This document shows, piece after piece, positions 7,333-16,755 of a stretch of 20,000 nt of DNA (the stretch's first letter is position 1; each line of letters opens with the position of its first letter). This DNA comes from an uncultured virus (IMG/VR IMGVR_UViG_3300042465_005830). Lineage: Duplodnaviria > Heunggongvirae > Uroviricota > Caudoviricetes. The notes below the pieces were generated by a model that saw only the letters and a list, made by a program, of their open reading frames with translations, made no database searches and was not told the DNA's origin. The stretch is from IMG/VR virus record IMGVR_UViG_3300042465_005830, positions 56,414-76,413 of that record, one strand, 5' to 3'. Both the position numbers and the translations under genes were made by a program.

Positions 7333-8451
7333 ATGAATAATAAATTTACATTCCACGTATTAGGACTTCCTCATACAATCACTAATAGAGAATTTGTAGC
7401 ATGTGCTTATACACAAAAAGCTTGGAAATTCTGTAAGATGATGGGAGAGAGAGGGCATACTATATACCATTACGGACATGAGGAGAGCGACGCTCCATAT
7501 GCGGAAAACGTAACAGTTATTACCAATAAGGTATGGAAAAAGGTATATGGTACTCACGACTATAAATCTAAATTCTTTAAGTACAATGTAGAGGATGAAG
7601 CCTATCAAACCTTCTATAAAAATGCTATAGAGGAAATAGGAAAGAGAAAACAGAAGAATGACTTCATACTTCCATTCTGGGGATCAGGAGTACGTCCAGT
7701 ATGTGATGGACATCCAGATTTAATAACTGTTGAACCAGGAATAGGTTACGCCGGAGGTCATTGGGCCAATTGGAAGGTATTTGAATCTTATGCAATCTAT
7801 CATGCATACTACGGACTGATGGGAGTGAATTATTGCGATATGAAAAACTATGAAGTAGTAATTCCAAACTATTTTGATCTTTCTGATTTCGAATTTAGCG
7901 ATAAAAAAGAAGACTACTTCTTATATTTAGGAAGAGTCTTTGATGGAAAAGGAGTTAATATAGCAATCCAGGTTACTGAACACTTAGGTTATAAATTAAA
8001 GATAGCAGGACAGATTGACGCTGATGGACCATATAAGGATGGAATCTTTCCTCCTCATGTAGAGTTTGTAGGGTATGCTGGTACTGAGAAGAGAAAAAAG
8101 TTAATGAAGAATGCAAAAGGATGCTTCTTACCTTCACAATATGTTGAACCATTTGGAGGAGTGCAAATAGAAAACCTTCTATCAGGAACACCTACCATCA
8201 CTTCAGACTGGGGAGCATTTGCAGAGAATAATATAAACGGAGTAACTGGCTATAGATGTAGAACGTTTGACGATTATTTAAAAGCAACTATAAAAGTCAA
8301 TAACGGAGAAATAGATTATAAGACTTGTAGAGAGTATGGAGAAAAGTTCTCATTAGAGAATGTAGCTCCTATGTATGAGAAATATTTTCAAGATGTTATG
8401 AACGTATATGAAGGAGATGGATGGTATCAAACAGACATTCCAAAAGTATAA
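7333..8451 (+). CDS. GT-B fold glycosyltransferase (GT4-like)
   Basis: YLGRVFDGKG and PSQYVEPFGGVQIENLLSGTPTITSDWGAFAE (E-x7-E nucleotide-sugar motif). Confidence 0.9.
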   Translation: MNNKFTFHVLGLPHTITNREFVACAYTQKAWKFCKMMGERGHTIYHYGHEESDAPYAENVTVITNKVWKKVYGTHDYKSKFFKYNVEDEAYQTFYKNAIEEIGKRKQKNDFILPFWGSGVRPVCDGHPDLITVEPGIGYAGGHWANWKVFESYAIYHAYYGLMGVNYCDMKNYEVVIPNYFDLSDFEFSDKKEDYFLYLGRVFDGKGVNIAIQVTEHLGYKLKIAGQIDADGPYKDGIFPPHVEFVGYAGTEKRKKLMKNAKGCFLPSQYVEPFGGVQIENLLSGTPTITSDWGAFAENNINGVTGYRCRTFDDYLKATIKVNNGEIDYKTCREYGEKFSLENVAPMYEKYFQDVMNVYEGDGWYQTDIPKV

Positions 8452-8463
8452 AACTTTAGTAAG

Positions 8464-8494
8464 TTGGATCATAAAAAGATATTTCTTATATTTA
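8464..8494 (+). promoter_or_regulatory. Bacteroidota-type promoter P5 (queD/queE transcript)
   Basis: TTG(8464-8466)-N20-TATATTTA(8487-8494). Confidence 0.78.
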
Positions 8495-8509
8495 TTAACA
8501 TATAACAAC

Positions 8510-8536
8510 AGTGTCGTAGCACCACTTTAAAAACAC
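8510..8536 (+). ncRNA. class I preQ1 riboswitch-like aptamer (copy 1)
   Basis: AGUG-UCGUAGCAC-CACU-UUAAAAACAC: P1 stem, UCGYAG loop ending in the specificity C, and AAAAAC tail; located in the 5' UTR of the queD/queE transcript. Confidence 0.75.
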
Positions 8537-8541
8537 ACCTT

Positions 8542-8865
8542 ATGGCAACATATTTTAAGAAGCCCTCCATAGAGAGAGCAGAACAATCGGTTATAATGGA
8601 TAGAGTTCTAGAACAAAAAAAGAAAGAACTTTCACCTGAGGATTTCAAAACCTATACAAACTTTACAACTCAGCAAGAACTACTTGAAGAAGCAGCTAGA
8701 AGAAATCTATTAGCAATTCCAGATCCAAAATTACATCAAACAATTTCATTTATTAAATCCGGTATAAGAATACTCGGATACTTCCTACTACCTTTTAATC
8801 TTCTAATAGGAGCCGGAGTATTAATTTTAAGTGAAATAGTTGGTATTTACGAAGAATTAGTTTAA
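8542..8865 (+). CDS. hypothetical protein with C-terminal hydrophobic hairpin
   Basis: 107 aa; C-terminal ISFIKSGIRILGYFLLPFNLLIGAGVLILSEIVGIYEELV; first gene behind aptamer copy 1. Confidence 0.75.
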   Translation: MATYFKKPSIERAEQSVIMDRVLEQKKKELSPEDFKTYTNFTTQQELLEEAARRNLLAIPDPKLHQTISFIKSGIRILGYFLLPFNLLIGAGVLILSEIVGIYEELV

Positions 8866-8874
8866 ATTAGAGTT

Positions 8875-9024
8875 ATGAGACAGGTAAACGATCACGTAAA
8901 AGAAGCTTTAGGAATAAAGCCTAAAAAGAGATTTAAGAAAGACTACACAAAAGCATTTGTATGGATCCTACTAGGAGCTATAACAGTTGCTATATGGACA
9001 ACAATTTACAATTTAATATTTTAA
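8875..9024 (+). CDS. small single-TM protein (49 aa, not in ORF track)
   Basis: MRQVNDHVKEALGIKPKKRFKKDYTKAFVWILLGAITVAIWTTIYNLIF*; fills the gap before queD. Confidence 0.65.
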   Translation: MRQVNDHVKEALGIKPKKRFKKDYTKAFVWILLGAITVAIWTTIYNLIF

Positions 9025-9027
9025 CAA

Positions 9028-9489
9028 ATGAAATTTCAATCAACAAAAGTCTTTGATGGATACTCAACAGTATTTCGTCAATGGAGAGCAGAAGGTACTC
9101 ATTGCAGGTTCCTACACGGTTATGGTATTTCTTTCAAAATTACTTTTGAAGGAGATCTAGACGAAAGAAACTGGGTATGGGACTTTGGAGGAATGAAGAG
9201 AGCTAAAAACACTATTGATGGTATGCCTCCTAAAGCATGGATGGACCATATGTTCGACCATACTTACATCATTGCAAAAGATGATCCATTCTTACCAAAA
9301 GCATTAGAGATGCACAACGAAGAAATAATCCAACTAAGAATAATTCCAGCTACAGGAGCAGAACAATTCGCTAAATTTATCTATGATAAAGTATCTGAAT
9401 TTATACAAATAGAAACAGAAGGTAGAGTAAGAGTAGTGAGTGTAGAATTTAAAGAACATAACAAAAACTCAGCGATATATGGAGAGTAA
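9028..9489 (+). CDS. queD: 6-carboxy-5,6,7,8-tetrahydropterin synthase (PTPS/QueD family)
   Basis: HCRFLHGY, WDFGGMK, FDHT and TGAEQFA (T-fold PTPS motifs); adjacent to queE. Confidence 0.88.
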   Translation: MKFQSTKVFDGYSTVFRQWRAEGTHCRFLHGYGISFKITFEGDLDERNWVWDFGGMKRAKNTIDGMPPKAWMDHMFDHTYIIAKDDPFLPKALEMHNEEIIQLRIIPATGAEQFAKFIYDKVSEFIQIETEGRVRVVSVEFKEHNKNSAIYGE

Positions 9490-9688
9490 AATTAAACTAT
9501 CAGAAGAAGAAGCAGAACAATTATTCGGAGAAATTGATAATCAAGGATTTGGATATTGGGTTGAGCATTATGGATATAAAGGAGAAGAAGATCCGGAATT
9601 AGTTCAACTATGTAAAGAAGCTAGAGCAGCTATGGAAAAGTTAAGAGAGCATATCGATGCTATTTGGGAACATTACGATATCGGATAG
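9479..9688 (+). CDS. hypothetical acidic protein
   Basis: 69-aa ORF overlapping the end of queD. Confidence 0.65.
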   Translation: MESKIKLSEEEAEQLFGEIDNQGFGYWVEHYGYKGEEDPELVQLCKEARAAMEKLREHIDAIWEHYDIG

Positions 9689-9689
9689 T

Positions 9690-9821
9690 ATGGTAGCAAA
9701 ACCTAATTTAACAATGGAAGAGTTCCACAAATACTTACAGGATGTAATAGACTCTAAATTAAATCTAAGACAGAAAGTAGTAGCGGTAGAAATGTATATA
9801 AAACAAATAACAGGTAGATGA
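9690..9821 (+). CDS. hypothetical protein (43 aa, not in ORF track)
   Basis: MVAKPNLTMEEFHKYLQDVIDSKLNLRQKVVAVEMYIKQITGR*; ATGA overlap with queE. Confidence 0.6.
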   Translation: MVAKPNLTMEEFHKYLQDVIDSKLNLRQKVVAVEMYIKQITGR

Positions 9822-10591
9822 AAAGAATAGAAGATTATAACAAAACACTTCCAATTGTAGAGCTTTATACAGCTGTACAATCAGAAGGAAGTAGAGCAGG
9901 CTATCCAACAGTAGTAATCAGAACAACAGGCTGTACTCACAGATGTTGGTTTGGTGAAGGTGGATGGTGTGATTCTTGGTACACAAGTATTCATCCTGAA
10001 AAAGGACATATTAGTTTCCAAGACATTATCAACATGTACGATAAGAATCCTCACATCACAGAGATGATGCTAACAGGAGGATCACCAACAATGCATCCAG
10101 CATTAGTAAATGAATTAACACATTTTGCACATGAAAGAAATATTTTCATTACAATTGAGACCGAAGGAAGTCATTTTCTTGAAACGGATTACCCAATTAA
10201 TCTATTATCAATCTCCCCTAAGTTCAGTAATTCTGTCCCTAAGGTTGGCGTACTCACACCTCAAGGAGACGTTACAGATGAAAGAATGATCAAACAGCAT
10301 AACAAGTTAAGATTAAACTACGATGCAATTTCTAAATCAATCTCGTATCATTCCGATTACCACTTAAAGCCAGTATGGGATGGAGAGGATCAAGAAGCGT
10401 TAGCAGAAATTATGGCTTGTATTAAAATGCTAGACATACCTCAAGACAAAGTATGGTTCATGCCAGCTGGAGATTCAAGAGAAGCTTTATTCAAATCATA
10501 TCCAAAAATGTTTGATTGGGTGAGAGATAATGGTTACAGATTGACTTGGAGACCTCACATCATTGCATTTGAGGACAAAAGAGAAGTGTAG
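9818..10591 (+). CDS. queE: 7-carboxy-7-deazaguanine synthase (radical SAM)
   Basis: ELYTAVQSEG..G.P.V.IRT.GC, CTHRC...WCDS, LTGGSP, IETEG, SISPK and final RPH motifs. Confidence 0.93.
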   Translation: MKRIEDYNKTLPIVELYTAVQSEGSRAGYPTVVIRTTGCTHRCWFGEGGWCDSWYTSIHPEKGHISFQDIINMYDKNPHITEMMLTGGSPTMHPALVNELTHFAHERNIFITIETEGSHFLETDYPINLLSISPKFSNSVPKVGVLTPQGDVTDERMIKQHNKLRLNYDAISKSISYHSDYHLKPVWDGEDQEALAEIMACIKMLDIPQDKVWFMPAGDSREALFKSYPKMFDWVRDNGYRLTWRPHIIAFEDKREV

Positions 10592-10592
10592 G

Positions 10593-10778
10593 ATGAGACC
10601 AGCAACTACAGTAGAAACATTGTACACTCTTCATACACTATGGAGAAAGGGTCAATTACAAACAGCACAGGTAAAGCACTTAATTAAGACTAGCTGCTTC
10701 CTAGAACTAACAAGTATAACAAACGGAGGCATCACAGCACAATCACCAGACGGAAAAATTAAATATTCAATTAAATAA
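10593..10778 (+). CDS. hypothetical protein
   Basis: Probable start ATG 10593 directly after the queE stop. Confidence 0.55.
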   Translation: MRPATTVETLYTLHTLWRKGQLQTAQVKHLIKTSCFLELTSITNGGITAQSPDGKIKYSIK

Positions 10779-10789
10779 AAAATAAAGTT

Positions 10790-11089
10790 ATGACATTAAA
10801 AGATCTAATCGATTTAGCAGGAGACAGAGAATTATCAAAAGCATATCCAAAAGCAGATGGCCTTTACATCTGGGACTATAAGTTACAGTTTAACGGTACT
10901 AAAAATTTTGAATTAGAGTTAGTACTAATACCAAGCGACTCAGGTAAGACAGGATTTAAAGATAAAGTATCTATCGAAGAATTAGTAAACTACGTACTGG
11001 AGTCAACAGATCCAGAAGTATCAGGAGATGAAATTATCTCACAACTACCAATAGTAGACGTGGAAGGAATTACAATTGCAAAGGTATAA
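10790..11089 (+). CDS. hypothetical protein
   Basis: 99-aa ORF with AAAGTT-ATG context. Confidence 0.7.
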   Translation: MTLKDLIDLAGDRELSKAYPKADGLYIWDYKLQFNGTKNFELELVLIPSDSGKTGFKDKVSIEELVNYVLESTDPEVSGDEIISQLPIVDVEGITIAKV

Positions 11090-11090
11090 T

Positions 11091-11675
11091 ATGAAGAAGT
11101 TTTTATTATTACTCTTACTTCCGTTAGTAGGGTTTGGACAGTTAAGAGATAGCGTTTATGTAAAGACAGACATCTACGAAGTGATGTATTCAGAGACACT
11201 AGAACAACCATTGTGGGTAAAGTACCAAGTACTATGTACAGGTGCTGGAGCATCTAGAAAAGGAATGGATTTTTATACAGATAAAACAATTCATACTTCA
11301 GATGCAAAAGATTATGTAAATAATGTTTACGACAAAGGACATTGTGCTCCAGCGGCAGACTTTAACTGCACTAGAGAAATGTTACTTAAAACATTTTCAT
11401 ACTTAAACTGTACCCTACAGAATGAAAGACTGAACAGAGTTCATTGGAGATTATTAGAAGACTATGAAAGACTTCTAGCCTTTTCAGAAGGACCAGTCAA
11501 TGTAGAAATAAAAATAGTATTTGACAAAGTACCTAAAAGAGTACCTGCAGGTGCAGCTATACCAACAGCTTTCTATAAAATTATCAAAACTAAAAATAAA
11601 ACACTTGCTTTCTATTTCTTAAATGAAGCACCAAAGAAAGCAACGTTTGTAGATTATCAAGTAAAACTTAACTAG
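11091..11675 (+). CDS. secreted DNA/RNA non-specific endonuclease (NucA/Serratia beta-beta-alpha-Me family)
   Basis: Signal peptide MKKFLLLLLLPLVGFG (start ATG 11091); PLWVKY, YDKGHCAPAADF, TFSYLNCTLQ...LN..W..LE and IPTAFYKII motifs. Confidence 0.9.
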   Translation: MKKFLLLLLLPLVGFGQLRDSVYVKTDIYEVMYSETLEQPLWVKYQVLCTGAGASRKGMDFYTDKTIHTSDAKDYVNNVYDKGHCAPAADFNCTREMLLKTFSYLNCTLQNERLNRVHWRLLEDYERLLAFSEGPVNVEIKIVFDKVPKRVPAGAAIPTAFYKIIKTKNKTLAFYFLNEAPKKATFVDYQVKLN

Positions 11676-11677
11676 TT

Positions 11678-12073
11678 ATGGCACTAAAAATAGGAAACAA
11701 AGTTTATTTAAGCTGGGATGATATTAATATCTTAGTAGAAGATTTATGTCAGACAATAGCTTCATCAGGAGCAGAAATTAAATCGATAACAGGTATTCAA
11801 AGAGGAGGGTTAATACCAGCAGTAATGATCTCCCACAAGCTCCATATACCTTTCGTTAGTAGAATAAATAAAGATACTCTTGTTGTAGATGACATTTGTG
11901 ATACAGGAGAGACGTTAAAAAAGACTATTGGAATGTATACTGCAACGCTTCATTACAAACCAACAGCAATATTTACCCCAGACTTCTATTCAAAAGAAGT
12001 AGGAACAGAGTGGATTGTTTACCCTTGGGAAAGAAATGATTCAGAAACTATTCAAGATTATTTGAAAAAATAG
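11678..12073 (+). CDS. type I phosphoribosyltransferase, Gpt (xanthine-guanine PRTase)-like
   Basis: YLSWDD, GIQRGGLIPA, PRPP loop VVDDICDTGET and WIVYPWE. Confidence 0.9.
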   Translation: MALKIGNKVYLSWDDINILVEDLCQTIASSGAEIKSITGIQRGGLIPAVMISHKLHIPFVSRINKDTLVVDDICDTGETLKKTIGMYTATLHYKPTAIFTPDFYSKEVGTEWIVYPWERNDSETIQDYLKK

Positions 12074-12104
12074 TTGCAGGATAGAATAAAAAATGTTATA
12101 TTAA
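12074..12104 (+). promoter_or_regulatory. Bacteroidota-type promoter P6 (folE transcript)
   Basis: TTG(12074-12076)-N20-TATATTAA(12097-12104). Confidence 0.75.
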
Positions 12105-12111
12105 ATAAAAC

Positions 12112-12138
12112 GGAGTCGTAGAACCTCCATAAAAACAA
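12112..12138 (+). ncRNA. class I preQ1 riboswitch-like aptamer (copy 2)
   Basis: GGAG-UCGUAGAAC-CUCC-AUAAAAACAA, ending 6 nt before the folE ATG; closely parallels the T. tengcongensis aptamer as recalled (CUGGG-UCGCAGUAAC-CCCAG-UUAACAAAACAAG). Confidence 0.82.
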
Positions 12139-12144
12139 TCTTAT

Positions 12145-12855
12145 ATGTCAAATAAAAAATTTATCGACGGTACAGAATTAGTACAAGCCGGATTCGCTAA
12201 TGGAATCTCAACACAATTAGCAAAAAAACAATTAATAGATGGTCCAGAAGCAAGACTAACTGAAGAAGAAAAGCAAGCTATTATCGAGAATGCTGCAGTA
12301 GCTTTTGGGCAATTCCTTTCAGCTTTAGGGTGTGATTGGAGTAATGATCCAAATTCATCTGATACTCCTAAGAGAGTTGCAAAAGCATATGTAAATGATT
12401 TATGGGCAGGTCGATTTGAACCAATGACTAAGATCACAGCATTCCCTTCTGATGGGTATGACGGAATAGTATTCGAAGGAAACATTCCAATTACTTCAAT
12501 GTGCTCTCATCATCACCAAACAATCACAGGAAGAGTTCATATCGGATATGTTCCTTCAGCAGATGGAAAAGTAGTTGGACTTTCTAAATTGAATAGAATT
12601 GTAGAGCAATTTGCTCGTAGAGGAGCTATCCAAGAACAATTAACAGTTGCAATTCATAATGCAGTAGATAAGATCTGTGAAGGTAATCTAGGAGTAGCAG
12701 TTATGATTGAAGCAGGACATAATTGTGTAAGCTGTAGAGGTATTAAGCATCAAGGTGCTTCAATGAAGACAGCAAAATTAACAGGATGTTTCTTAGACGA
12801 AGCATCAGCAAGAGCAGAATTTTACGAATTTGTAAAAGGATATAGTTGTAAATAA
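12145..12855 (+). CDS. folE: GTP cyclohydrolase I
   Basis: TPKRVAK, SMCSHH, GLSKLNRIV, QEQLT and HNCVSCRG motifs. Confidence 0.95.
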   Translation: MSNKKFIDGTELVQAGFANGISTQLAKKQLIDGPEARLTEEEKQAIIENAAVAFGQFLSALGCDWSNDPNSSDTPKRVAKAYVNDLWAGRFEPMTKITAFPSDGYDGIVFEGNIPITSMCSHHHQTITGRVHIGYVPSADGKVVGLSKLNRIVEQFARRGAIQEQLTVAIHNAVDKICEGNLGVAVMIEAGHNCVSCRGIKHQGASMKTAKLTGCFLDEASARAEFYEFVKGYSCK

Positions 12856-12867
12856 AAACCAAACATT

Positions 12868-13065
12868 ATGAATTATTGGCAAGTAACTGTGCAATTGGAG
12901 CACGAAAATGACCGAGGTCGTATCCAAAGAGTAAAAGAACTTTATTTAGTAGATGCAATTTCAGCAACAGATGCTGAAGCAAAAATCTATAAAGAGTTTG
13001 AAGGAGAGTCTAACTTTACAGTAGTAGGAGTTAACCAATCTAAAATCCTAAAAGTAATTGAATAA
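12868..13065 (+). CDS. DUF4494-like protein
   Basis: KELYLVDAISATDAEAKI resembles the Bacteroidota DUF4494 N-terminal motif (E.YLVDA.SFTEAEARI). Confidence 0.65.
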   Translation: MNYWQVTVQLEHENDRGRIQRVKELYLVDAISATDAEAKIYKEFEGESNFTVVGVNQSKILKVIE

Positions 13066-13630: not shown

Positions 13631-13833
13631 TGCAAGCAGCACTAGACCATTTAGAAAAGCATAAAGTGTTTATTGATACTTTAGGTATAGATATGATTCC
13701 TTTATCAGAGGCTTATAAAGCAGTTGAGAAATCTATTGATAGTCAGCTGGCAGAAGTTATGGAAACATTACAGACACAGCTAGGAGGGTTAGTAGAAGAT
13801 TTAGAAGATATAACACCAGAAAATAATGATTAA
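13630..13833 (+). CDS. hypothetical acidic protein
   Basis: 67-aa ORF coupled to both neighbours. Confidence 0.65.
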   Translation: MQAALDHLEKHKVFIDTLGIDMIPLSEAYKAVEKSIDSQLAEVMETLQTQLGGLVEDLEDITPENND

Positions 13834-14620
13834 GATAGCACACGAATCACCGAAGAGTATATTTAAAGAAGTACAAAAGCATACTGATTACGACTATGCA
13901 CTTGTTCACTTATTTGAAGAAGATCCAGAATACTTAAAACAGTTTCAAGAAGCTAAAGAAGCAGGTAGAGAAATTATTTTAGATAATTCTATATTTGAAT
14001 TAGAAGAAGCTTTTGATGCAGAGAAGTTTGCAGGATGGGTATTAGAATTAAAGCCAGATTGGTATATAGTTCCAGATGCTTTAGAAGATGCAAAGAAGAC
14101 TGTTAAGCAGATGACTGAATGGAATAACAAATATAAAAATCTTCCAGGAAAGAAAATAGGAGTTGTTCAAGGAAAGACTTATAGTCAAATTAAGACTTGT
14201 TATGAGTATATGGATAAGATTGCAAATGTAGATATGATTGCAATTTCATTCGACTATTCGTACTATACTAATACTATTTCTCATCCTAACAAGTATGTTA
14301 GCTGGATGTTAGGAAGGGTTAAGCTACTAGGAGATCTGTTGAGAGACGGTGTAATAAACGAAGAGAAGAAGCATCACTTATTAGGATGTGGATTACCTCA
14401 AGAGTTTTCTTTTTACTCAGATTATAAATGGATCTATTCTTTAGATACTTCTAATCCAGTTGTACATGGTATAAAAGGAATTGAGTATAGAGCAGACGGA
14501 TTATGGTCAAAAGAGTCTCAAAAGTTATTTGAACTAATCAATTACGTACCAGAAGATACGAATATGATTCTTCAGAACATTCACAAATTCAGATGGTTTG
14601 CAAATGGACGCAAAGTATAA
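13826..14620 (+). CDS. TGT-fold 7-deazaguanine enzyme, DpdA3-like
   Basis: IILDNSIFE (variant of the TGT/DpdA DSG motif), IVPD, IGVVQG, HHLLG and SLDTS match the order of TGT barrel motifs; located within a que cluster. Confidence 0.72.
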   Translation: MIKIAHESPKSIFKEVQKHTDYDYALVHLFEEDPEYLKQFQEAKEAGREIILDNSIFELEEAFDAEKFAGWVLELKPDWYIVPDALEDAKKTVKQMTEWNNKYKNLPGKKIGVVQGKTYSQIKTCYEYMDKIANVDMIAISFDYSYYTNTISHPNKYVSWMLGRVKLLGDLLRDGVINEEKKHHLLGCGLPQEFSFYSDYKWIYSLDTSNPVVHGIKGIEYRADGLWSKESQKLFELINYVPEDTNMILQNIHKFRWFANGRKV

Positions 14621-15831: not shown

Positions 15832-16755
15832 ATGGCAGAATTAAATCAAGCAGAAGTAGTAAAGATTGCCGGAAAGCATCTTGGTAAAGTAGGAGGAGAA
15901 GGTTATAAGGATACTTATGATCCAGAATTATTAGTAGAGATTCCTCGTTACTTAAACAGAGAAGCATACGGAATAGACGATAACAACTTACCATTTGTTG
16001 GAGGAGATGTTTGGAATGCATACGAAGTATCAGCAATCACTACAAAAGGACTTCCAGTAGTAGGGATGTTGAAAATTTACTATCCAGCAGATTCAAAACT
16101 TCACGTAGAGTCTAAATCTATCAAATTGTATTTGAATTCATTCAATATGACTCAAATGGGAGATACAGCAGCAGAGTGTATTGCAATTTTAAAAGATAGA
16201 GTAAAGAGAGATTTATCTGAGAAGTTACAAACAAATGTAGAAGTAGAGATGTTTACTTCAGACTTTGGACCAGCATATGCATTTAAAGGATATGCACAAT
16301 TGGATCAAATAGCTAATCTAGATAATATTGAATTTACTTCTTATCATTCAGATGCTACACAATTGGAAACAGAAGAAGTAGATGATGATTTCGAAATTGG
16401 AGTAATCAAAATACAATCAAATCTTTTAAGATCAAATTGTAGAGTAACAAATCAACCAGACTGGGGTGATGTATTTATTCACATTAAACCTAAAGCAGGA
16501 GTTGTTCCTAATTTAGAATCATTAGCAAAATATATTGTAAGTCACAGACAAGTAAGTCACTTCCACGAAGAGATTTGTGAAATGGTTTACATGCACTTAA
16601 GAGAAGCTTACAATCCAGAAGAATTAATGGTAGCTTGTCTTTACACTCGTAGAGGAGGATTAGATATTAATCCAGTAAGAGCTTCACATAAGGAATTAAT
16701 CCCAAGCTTCTTTGCAGATGTAAAATGCAGAATGGAAAAAACATTACGCCAATAA
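15832..16755 (+). CDS. queF: NADPH-dependent preQ0 reductase, bimodular (E. coli YqcD-type)
   Basis: DVWNAYEVS, QueF motif ESKSIKLYLNSF, catalytic LRSNCRVTNQPDWG, FHEEICE and YTRRGGLDINP. Confidence 0.95.
   Translation: MAELNQAEVVKIAGKHLGKVGGEGYKDTYDPELLVEIPRYLNREAYGIDDNNLPFVGGDVWNAYEVSAITTKGLPVVGMLKIYYPADSKLHVESKSIKLYLNSFNMTQMGDTAAECIAILKDRVKRDLSEKLQTNVEVEMFTSDFGPAYAFKGYAQLDQIANLDNIEFTSYHSDATQLETEEVDDDFEIGVIKIQSNLLRSNCRVTNQPDWGDVFIHIKPKAGVVPNLESLAKYIVSHRQVSHFHEEICEMVYMHLREAYNPEELMVACLYTRRGGLDINPVRASHKELIPSFFADVKCRMEKTLRQ

Follow-up and report, generated by a model that had tools for sequence, protein, structure and literature searches.

How translation could be switched by an aptamer on messages that carry no Shine-Dalgarno (SD) sequence is the question raised by two short elements in the window, a stretch of 20,000 nucleotides (nt) from an uncultured virus of the Caudoviricetes (IMG/VR record IMGVR_UViG_3300042465_005830, positions 56,414 to 76,413). 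One element lies directly upstream of a gene for a protein of 107 amino acids (aa), and the other upstream of the gene for FolE (GTP cyclohydrolase I), which catalyzes the first step in 7-deazaguanine synthesis. The original prediction had described both as aptamers whose pseudoknot, once folded on its ligand, buries an A-rich initiation element and thereby turns translation off. Our analysis favors, with a probability of about 0.7, a compact preQ1-I-type riboswitch in which a ligand-folded pseudoknot would block SD-less initiation and act as an OFF switch; its ligand, its OFF direction and its action at translation are what we infer from sequence comparison.

Two elements at start codons of 7-deazaguanine genes

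The two elements consist of the following parts, where P1 and P2 denote the two helices of the proposed pseudoknot and L3 the strand between them.

8510 to 8541, + strand: switch 1, AGUG-UCGUAGCAC-CACU-UUAAAAAC-ACACCUU-AUG
8510 to 8513 and 8523 to 8526: putative P1 of switch 1, 5' strand AGUG and 3' strand CACU
8514 to 8522: loop UCGUAGCAC of switch 1, with the specificity-position C at 8522
8527 to 8533: L3 of switch 1, UUAAAAA
8534 to 8537: 3' strand of P2 of switch 1, CACA, with the predicted pairs G8519-C8534 and U8517-A8537
8538 to 8541: spacer CCUU of switch 1
12112 to 12144, + strand: switch 2, GGAG-UCGUAGAAC-CUCC-AUAAAAAC-AAUCUUAU-AUG
12112 to 12115 and 12125 to 12128: putative P1 of switch 2, 5' strand GGAG and 3' strand CUCC
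12116 to 12124: loop UCGUAGAAC of switch 2, with the specificity-position C at 12124
12129 to 12135: L3 of switch 2, AUAAAAA
12136 to 12144: C12136, predicted to pair with G12121, followed by the spacer up to 12144

The AAAAAC tails were found where the original prediction had placed them, at 8529-8534 before the ATG at 8542 (site 1) and at 12131-12136 before the ATG at 12145 (site 2), so that the five adenines occupy -13 to -9 at site 1 and -14 to -10 at site 2 (A of the ATG being 0). Both sites share a 4-bp stem, the loop UCGUAG(A/C)AC and the tail UAAAAAC-A, with 7-8 nt from the tail C to the ATG. The pattern TCGTAGMACNNNNNTAAAAAC, allowing up to 2 mismatches, matched the window twice against 0.03 matches expected, a number reached in none of 200 shuffles, and the whole record of 76,413 bases holds just these two copies of the motif. 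A covariance-type search with model R1, which was built on the phage motif, gave 55.5 bits for site 1 and 46.5 bits for site 2.

The window is the final 20 kb of this 76.4-kb record, whose completeness is about 47%. Its best-matching isolate is Flavobacterium phage vB_FspM_immuto (87.6% identity across 61% of a 5.8-kb query), and the core of site 2 is present in identical form before the FolE gene of that phage. In the DNA of phage immuto every G is substituted by formyl-preQ1 (PMC10516641). To judge by its genes, which include QueD, QueE, FolE and QueF, with QueC lying 11 kb upstream within the same record, the window is a piece of a Flavobacterium-phage-like genome with the full preQ1 pathway.

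Recurrence of the motif

A scan of viral contigs with the exact pattern returned at least 128 loci with at least 129 instances, and the counts derived from it below, here and in later sections, refer to the matches listed. All four stem pairs could form in 96 of the 129 instances, where chance would give a few per cent; this support for P1 is independent of any preselection for pairing. The remaining instances had 0-3 stem pairs and unrelated surroundings. In 93 of the 96 well-formed copies the next gene belonged to the 7-deazaguanine cluster: a small protein related to the 107-aa protein, usually followed by QueD and QueE, in 51 copies, FolE in 36, QueD in 3 and QueE in 3. Numerous contigs had both kinds of copy, like the window. 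The distance from the tail C to the ATG ranged from 4 to 12 nt with a mode of 6 over the 96 copies. All 30 of the large motif-bearing contigs encoded QueC and 28 of them encoded QueF, and the motif-bearing phages therefore make preQ1. The loop variant UCGCAG gave three matches, only one of them before a FolE-like gene and with three of the four stem pairs. No motif was present ahead of QueD or FolE in Cellulophaga phage phiST, which makes 7-deazaguanine and has no QueC.

The bacterial contigs, scanned in the same manner (at least 120 loci), contained 16 loci with all four stem pairs among the matches listed. Fifteen of these were of one kind, with the stem CCUG/CAGG, and those with a named source came from Thalassospira (8) and Vibrio (1). 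The Thalassospira copies are leaders of queC with the core CCUG-UCGUAGCAC-CAGG-UUAAAAACACGAAAGA, in which loop and tail are identical to the phage motif (L134:1497-1541; L144, L200 and others), and the protein encoded downstream matched Pfam QueC with an E value of 1e-60. Between tail and ATG these leaders have a purine-rich GAAAGA and 16-19 nt, counted by eye. The remaining fully paired locus, in a metagenome-assembled genome of Bacteroidia, had no ATG context and was set aside as a chance match. In the host family, model R1 found the motif in none of 151 Flavobacteriaceae genomes, with only about 46 candidates scored per genome. The pattern with up to one mismatch occurred in 107 of 401 host-family genomes, which by eye was no commoner than the reversed-pattern control, in figures neither summed nor checked individually.

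Since the hairpin is small, does not vary in its loop, stands at the start of a number of co-regulated phage genes and is scored by no Rfam family, it could also be the operator of a phage translational repressor comparable to T4 RegA or the gene 32 protein, in which case hairpin and tail would bind protein and no small molecule would be involved. We consider this very unlikely, given that bacterial chromosomes have exactly this loop and tail ahead of queC and that the features of the element map one-to-one onto a known small-molecule aptamer; moreover, no candidate repressor gene was identified.

Stem, pseudoknot and specificity position

The stems observed were AGUG/CACU, GGAG/CUCC, UGAG/CUCA, GGUG/CACC and UGUG/CACA. 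The first P1 pair varied most (AU 35, GC 8, UA 5, CG 4), the second was GC in 48 cases and CG in 4, the third UA in 44 and AU in 8, and the fourth GC in all 52. Three of the four pairs were thus altered on both sides, and compensatory changes amounted to 29 cells as compared to 3.9 in shuffles, counted over rows preselected for pairing. In P2, the loop G faced the tail C in 62 of 62 distinct rows. The second P2 pair, formed by loop position 4 and the third base after the tail C, was UA in 29 of these rows, CG in 10, UG in 10 and another combination in 13, and the loop variant UCACAG was accompanied by the matching tail G in 16 of 16 well-formed copies. An alternative register of P2 showed no compensatory change and was rejected. 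When the C at the specificity position was exchanged for any other base in the scan, eight matches were obtained and none of them was well formed.

The stem alone is weak, with -0.5 and -2.4 kcal/mol at the two sites, and the median P1 pair probability predicted in ligand-free ensembles was 0.02 over 71 unique leaders. The region should consequently be open in the absence of ligand, as would be expected if folding depends on the ligand. At site 1, the fold of minimum free energy has 8512-8519 paired with 8540-8547, over the AUG, which could suggest an ON switch whose 5' aptamer half covers the start region until the ligand frees the AUG. However, no such pairing over the AUG was predicted at site 2, and the mean complementarity of the aptamer half to its own start region was no stronger, with -3.5 kcal/mol (61 unique pairs), than that to the start regions of 75 other genes of the phage, with -4.1 kcal/mol (one-sided p = 0.95), so that an ON switch appears highly improbable.

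Many leaders of the small-protein type have a conserved GAC(A/U)AU just 5' of the stem (for instance L010, L013 and L031), which is not found at site 1. This sequence can pair with GUGUC, which comprises the last bases of the P1 5' strand and the two that open the loop; in several leaders such a mini-hairpin is predicted by ViennaRNA. The sequence may serve as an anti-P1 element or else belong to the transcription start region.

Relation to the preQ1-I class

The type definitions of preQ1-I riboswitches were taken from a 2024 review (PMC11625349), according to which type II is defined by an AC before the P1 3' strand, its L3 adenines bind in the minor groove of P1, a C·G-C triple lies above the ligand, and P2 has standard pairs at only two of four steps. 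The phage elements resemble the type II aptamers of Thermoanaerobacter tengcongensis and Bacillus subtilis in their plan of an H-type pseudoknot; in the UC that follows the P1 5' strand and the AC that precedes its 3' strand, present at both sites; in an A-rich L3 directly after P1 (UUAAAAA and AUAAAAA, a conservation partly forced by the search pattern); in a tail C that would pair with a loop G within a weak P2 of only two standard pairs; and in their link to 7-deazaguanine genes, which holds for the 93 of 96 phage copies and for queC of Thalassospira. They differ from type II in being carried by phages and unscored by RF00522, and in having no SD sequence in or after P2, the AUG following 4-12 nt past the tail C. 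P1 is also shorter, with 4 bp as compared to 5 bp in solved type II aptamers, and the loop has 1 nt less than that of the solved type II aptamer. Where the phage sites have UC and AC next to the 5' and 3' strands of P1, type I members have UU and UC, respectively. The element is best read, from its sequence features, as a compact variant of a type II-like preQ1-I aptamer and not as a certified member of the class.

At its gathering scores (39 bits for RF00522), Rfam found no family anywhere in the window, and slices of 161 nt around each site gave no preQ1 family at E<=10. As positive controls, members of RF00522 from Bacillus and Sporosarcina, which have 5-bp stems and UUCG...UC loops of 11-12 nt, were scored at 51.8-55 bits. 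The term aptamer used in the original prediction agrees with the preQ1-like features, the covariation and the regulon and finds no backing in RF00522. The covariation of the stem, the invariant C, the A-rich L3 and the 7-deazaguanine regulon support the view that the two elements would behave like preQ1-type aptamers.

The shorter loop and the lack of an RF00522 score could also mean that the same fold and the same switch serve another 7-deazaguanine, for example preQ0, 7-carboxy-7-deazaguanine or a formylated base, the elements being a specificity variant and not a preQ1 sensor. The nearest isolate uses formyl-preQ1 for all its G (PMC10516641), and the window has a formyltransferase homologue. 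Against this, the placement of AC and UC matches preQ1-binding type II (PMC11625349), the core is shared with bacterial queC leaders in Thalassospira, where DNA modification is not expected, and QueF, the maker of preQ1, is encoded in 28 of the 30 motif-bearing contigs mentioned above. We therefore regard a different ligand as unlikely and retain preQ1 as the preferred one.

Leaders without Shine-Dalgarno sequences

Upstream of each element a promoter candidate was found, in the following positions.

8464 to 8494, + strand: promoter candidate of switch 1, with TTG at 8464-8466, a 20-nt spacer and TATATTTA at 8487-8494
12074 to 12104, + strand: promoter candidate of switch 2, with TTG at 12074-12076, a 20-nt spacer and TATATTAA at 12097-12104

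The corresponding pattern TTG-N19/20-TAnnTT was present upstream of 67 of 76 unique related leaders, compared to a mean of 8.1 of 76 in shuffles, and its spacer was exactly 20 nt in 61 cases and 19 nt in 6. The pattern is probably the signature of a Bacteroidota-type class of phage promoters. A sigma-70 promoter scan, not informative for Bacteroidota, gave 11 sites where 15.4 were expected. Contigs assembled from RNA libraries, which may hold DNA and speak of presence only, start at 8495 and 8500 in two studies and give a weak hint of a transcript start. From the promoter boxes, together with these contig starts, a leader of about 45 nt would result, with little in it beyond the aptamer. RNA-library contigs from lake, river and marine samples cover much of the cluster (8200-13000; X15-X18) at 90-99% identity; close relatives of this phage are thus present in a number of waters, where their genes may undergo transcription, DNA carry-over being possible.

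No SD-like 4-mer was found between stem and ATG at either site or in any of 55 unique related leaders, and no terminator-like site was found on the + strand between 8300 and 12400; with only 7-8 nt from the tail C to the ATG there is no room for a terminator. The original prediction was correct in stating the absence of both signals, and also in assuming that translation here does without SD pairing and favors adenines. Over 91 putative phage genes the frequency of A peaks at 0.64-0.70 at positions -13 to -11, and SD-like 4-mers precede only 11 of the 91, fewer than the background of 0.21. In F. johnsoniae, adenines at -3, -6, -12 and -13 promote initiation, with bS1 as the suspected reader (PMC6847099). 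Of the 55 unique related leaders, 51 have an A at -11 and 43 have one at -12. In 14 of the 96 copies the spacer is 11-12 nt and the A-tract falls at about -18 to -13; there, other adenines fill -10 to -12.

An RNA that senses the base might still act mainly through transcription, by pausing that the pseudoknot stabilizes or by Rho-dependent polarity, or through decay of the messenger RNA (mRNA), and not at initiation. Pseudoknot-dependent pausing is known from the B. subtilis preQ1-I switch (PMC11625349), and QueD and QueE, which lie beyond the first cistron, would be reached more easily in this way. The lack of a terminator speaks against such a mode, as do the end of the aptamer at 4-5 nt from the AUG and the spacing between aptamer and AUG, which is 4-12 nt in the phages compared to the longer spacing counted in Thalassospira. 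In addition, thiamine pyrophosphate (TPP) switches of Bacteroides thetaiotaomicron located less than 5 nt from the start alter translation and not the transcript level (bioRxiv 10.1101/867226). Control by transcription or decay is accordingly considered quite unlikely, and a block of initiation is preferred.

Proposed mechanism

In the preferred reading, each site would be a minimal riboswitch of about 31 nt, composed of a 4-bp P1, a 9-nt loop (UC...AC), an A-rich L3 and a short P2. A 7-deazaguanine base made by the phage, most likely preQ1 and possibly preQ0, would accumulate and be read by the invariant loop cytosine. L3 would then dock along P1 and P2 would close, giving a pseudoknot that extends from about -32 to -5 and ends 4-5 nt short of the AUG. 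A ribosome of the host type, working without SD pairing, would need an unstructured A-rich stretch at about -11 to -13, which the folded knot would take away, barring the 30S subunit from loading. Translation would fall for FolE and for the first gene of the unit comprising the small protein, QueD and QueE, and in this way the amount of modified base available for phage DNA would be under feedback control. Such a steric OFF mechanism fits two precedents, the steric block by a preQ1-I switch (PMC10018353) and the TPP switches of B. thetaiotaomicron (bioRxiv 10.1101/867226).

The burial of the A-rich element, as put forward in the original prediction, stands in so far as the tract overlaps the adenines at -11 to -13. 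Since any knot that reached to 4-5 nt from the AUG would keep the 30S subunit off irrespective of sequence, the hiding of the A-tract is not separated from plain occlusion, and an initiation signal formed by the buried adenines themselves is plausible. A more far-reaching version, which we consider possible but doubtful, would make the elements a phage sub-class not detected by Rfam, in which one RNA of about 31 nt would serve as sensor and as the entire expression platform. The A-tract of L3 would then coincide with the landing site, at about -11 to -13, that SD-blind Bacteroidota ribosomes need, and would be withdrawn on binding; the switch would meter the base that replaces all guanine in the phage DNA, its ligand perhaps retuned from preQ1 to another base of the pathway.

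A number of observations weigh against a preQ1-I-type switch acting at these two genes. RF00522 scores neither site, and over the whole record it gives only an unrelated match of 10.3 bits elsewhere; conversely, model R1 misses canonical RF00522 members at their mapped positions. The Thalassospira copy, too, was matched by no Rfam family including RF00522 (91-nt slice, E<=10), which looks like a gap in the RF00522 model. The invariance of loop and tail and the complete P1 pairing arise partly by construction, because copies were collected by an exact pattern and then filtered for pairing, and the covariation represents few events because the copies are related; the change from U-A to C-G in P2 may be a single event in one clade. 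P2 is weak, its second pair being non-standard in the 13 of 62 rows noted above, and site 2 is among these, with U12119 unpaired opposite U12139. As to gene association, phage immuto carries the FolE copy only, no motif is found ahead of QueC, QueF or DpdA in the record of the window, and the motif is present at only 23 of 80 loci fetched by means of the small protein. Finally, RNA-library contigs cross switch 2 from upstream, and FolE may consequently be expressed from longer transcripts as well.

Comparison with known systems

What is new is best described as the setting and the compact variant; the preQ1-I class and switches that lie next to the start or act by steric block were already known. 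Close in mechanism is the type I preQ1-I riboswitch of Carnobacterium antarcticum, in which a ligand-folded pseudoknot represses translation without SD pairing (PMC10018353). The premise that translational preQ1-I switches act by hiding an SD sequence, on which the original prediction had relied, does not hold generally, since this type I aptamer continues to repress once its coupling to the SD is removed (PMC10018353). The C. antarcticum case was established with engineered spacers, in E. coli and on an SD-bearing mRNA (PMC10018353), whereas the SD-less layout of the phage is natural; in addition, a type I aptamer takes up two ligands, and its specificity site reads UC (PMC11625349). The TPP switch of B. 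thetaiotaomicron is an experimentally shown translational switch in an SD-less phylum, in which the start codon is fewer than 5 nt away from the aptamer and the transcript level is unchanged, but it has another ligand and a large aptamer, is bacterial, and its mechanism was left open (bioRxiv 10.1101/867226).

A third relative is a canonical member of RF00522 (50 bits) found in one of 151 Flavobacteriaceae genomes (L388, minus strand, just upstream of 849-1499). It comes from the same host family and stands, without an SD sequence, before a gene for a transporter of the Vut_1/YhhQ type. Its tail before the AUG is CUAAGAAAACA, in which adenines replace the usual AGGAG, with the AUG 12 nt past the A-tract. 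Unlike the phage elements it is bacterial and type-I-like, with a 5-bp P1 and a UUCG...UC loop. By its sequence it is a bacterial case of a preQ1-I switch without SD.

Riboswitches were described as rare in phages, with a handful reported, in a 2017 survey (PMC5473149). Those named there, c-di-GMP-I in prophages of C. difficile and the glutamine riboswitch in cyanophages, share with the present elements that they are borne by phages (PMC5473149). They are few isolated cases of standard classes, whereas the phage motif has well-formed copies in a number of at least 96, frequently as a pair in one genome, and is proposed to control the phage's own DNA-modification pathway. A literature search, outside which most subscription journals lay, found no paper that connects a preQ1 riboswitch with the 7-deazaguanine clusters of phages, nor one that connects it with phages of Flavobacterium or Cellulophaga. 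For pneumococcal phage Dp-1, which may carry a preQ1 riboswitch, Rfam at the gathering score gave nothing in the first 6 kb of the queuosine cluster.

The motif is frequent among large aquatic phages of one group and would control a pathway that rewrites the G of DNA to 7-deazaguanine. Translational riboswitches in organisms without SD sequences have been predicted in a review, and their control of SD-less mRNAs is named there as an open question of the field (PMC11625349); the phage elements offer a natural and very small test case for it. The hypothesis on the A-tract is directly testable because the gap between aptamer and start is only a few nt, the structure of the F. johnsoniae ribosome is solved and its genetics are working. 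The elements also expose a blind spot of Rfam, whose model misses the phage motif and the bacterial queC leader with the same core.

Genes of the cluster

The genes around the two switches are given below, named by their Pfam matches and from the annotation of phage immuto; ORF stands for open reading frame.

8542 to 8865, + strand: 107-aa protein of no known family, candidate first regulated gene
8875 to 9024, + strand: ORF of 49 aa, under the default ORF length cut-off
9028 to 9489, + strand: QueD (Pfam PTPS)
9479 to 9688, + strand: ORF between QueD and QueE
9818 to 10591, + strand: QueE (Pfam Radical_SAM)
11076 to 11675: non-specific endonuclease (Pfam Endonuclease_NS, E 7e-25)
11678 to 12073: phosphoribosyltransferase
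12145 to 12855, + strand: FolE, GTP cyclohydrolase I (Pfam GTP_cyclohydroI, E 8.6e-45), candidate second regulated gene
after FolE and ahead of the DpdA homologue: DUF4494 and MazG-like protein
13826 to 14620: DpdA homologue, named from the immuto annotation
between the DpdA homologue and QueF: formyltransferase homologue
15832 to 16755: QueF

The genes from the 107-aa protein through the 49-aa ORF, QueD and the following ORF to QueE (8542-10591) are tightly packed and would form one transcript. The 49-aa ORF, situated between the small protein gene and QueD, has a hydrophobic C-terminal half and resembles by eye a hypothetical coding sequence of 50 aa ahead of QueD in phage immuto (L001, 4013-4162). 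The Endonuclease_NS gene sits within the 7-deazaguanine cluster, while phage immuto is without it at the equivalent place; of the 96 related copies, 9 likewise have an endonuclease gene on the upstream side of the FolE switch.

The 107-aa protein matched no Pfam or PHROG family. It belongs to a family of small phage proteins of 60-110 aa whose N-terminus varies and whose C-terminal module, PDPKLHQxISFIKSGIRI...SEIVGIxEELV (alignment A1), is invariant and runs exactly up to the stop codon. Relatives are encoded in 533 viral stretches, and the look-alikes in the Atlas came from viruses only. Its gene is mostly the first in a unit with QueD and QueE (loci L262-L341), and the predicted structure of the protein is a confident helical hairpin over residues 62-106, with a pLDDT of about 95.

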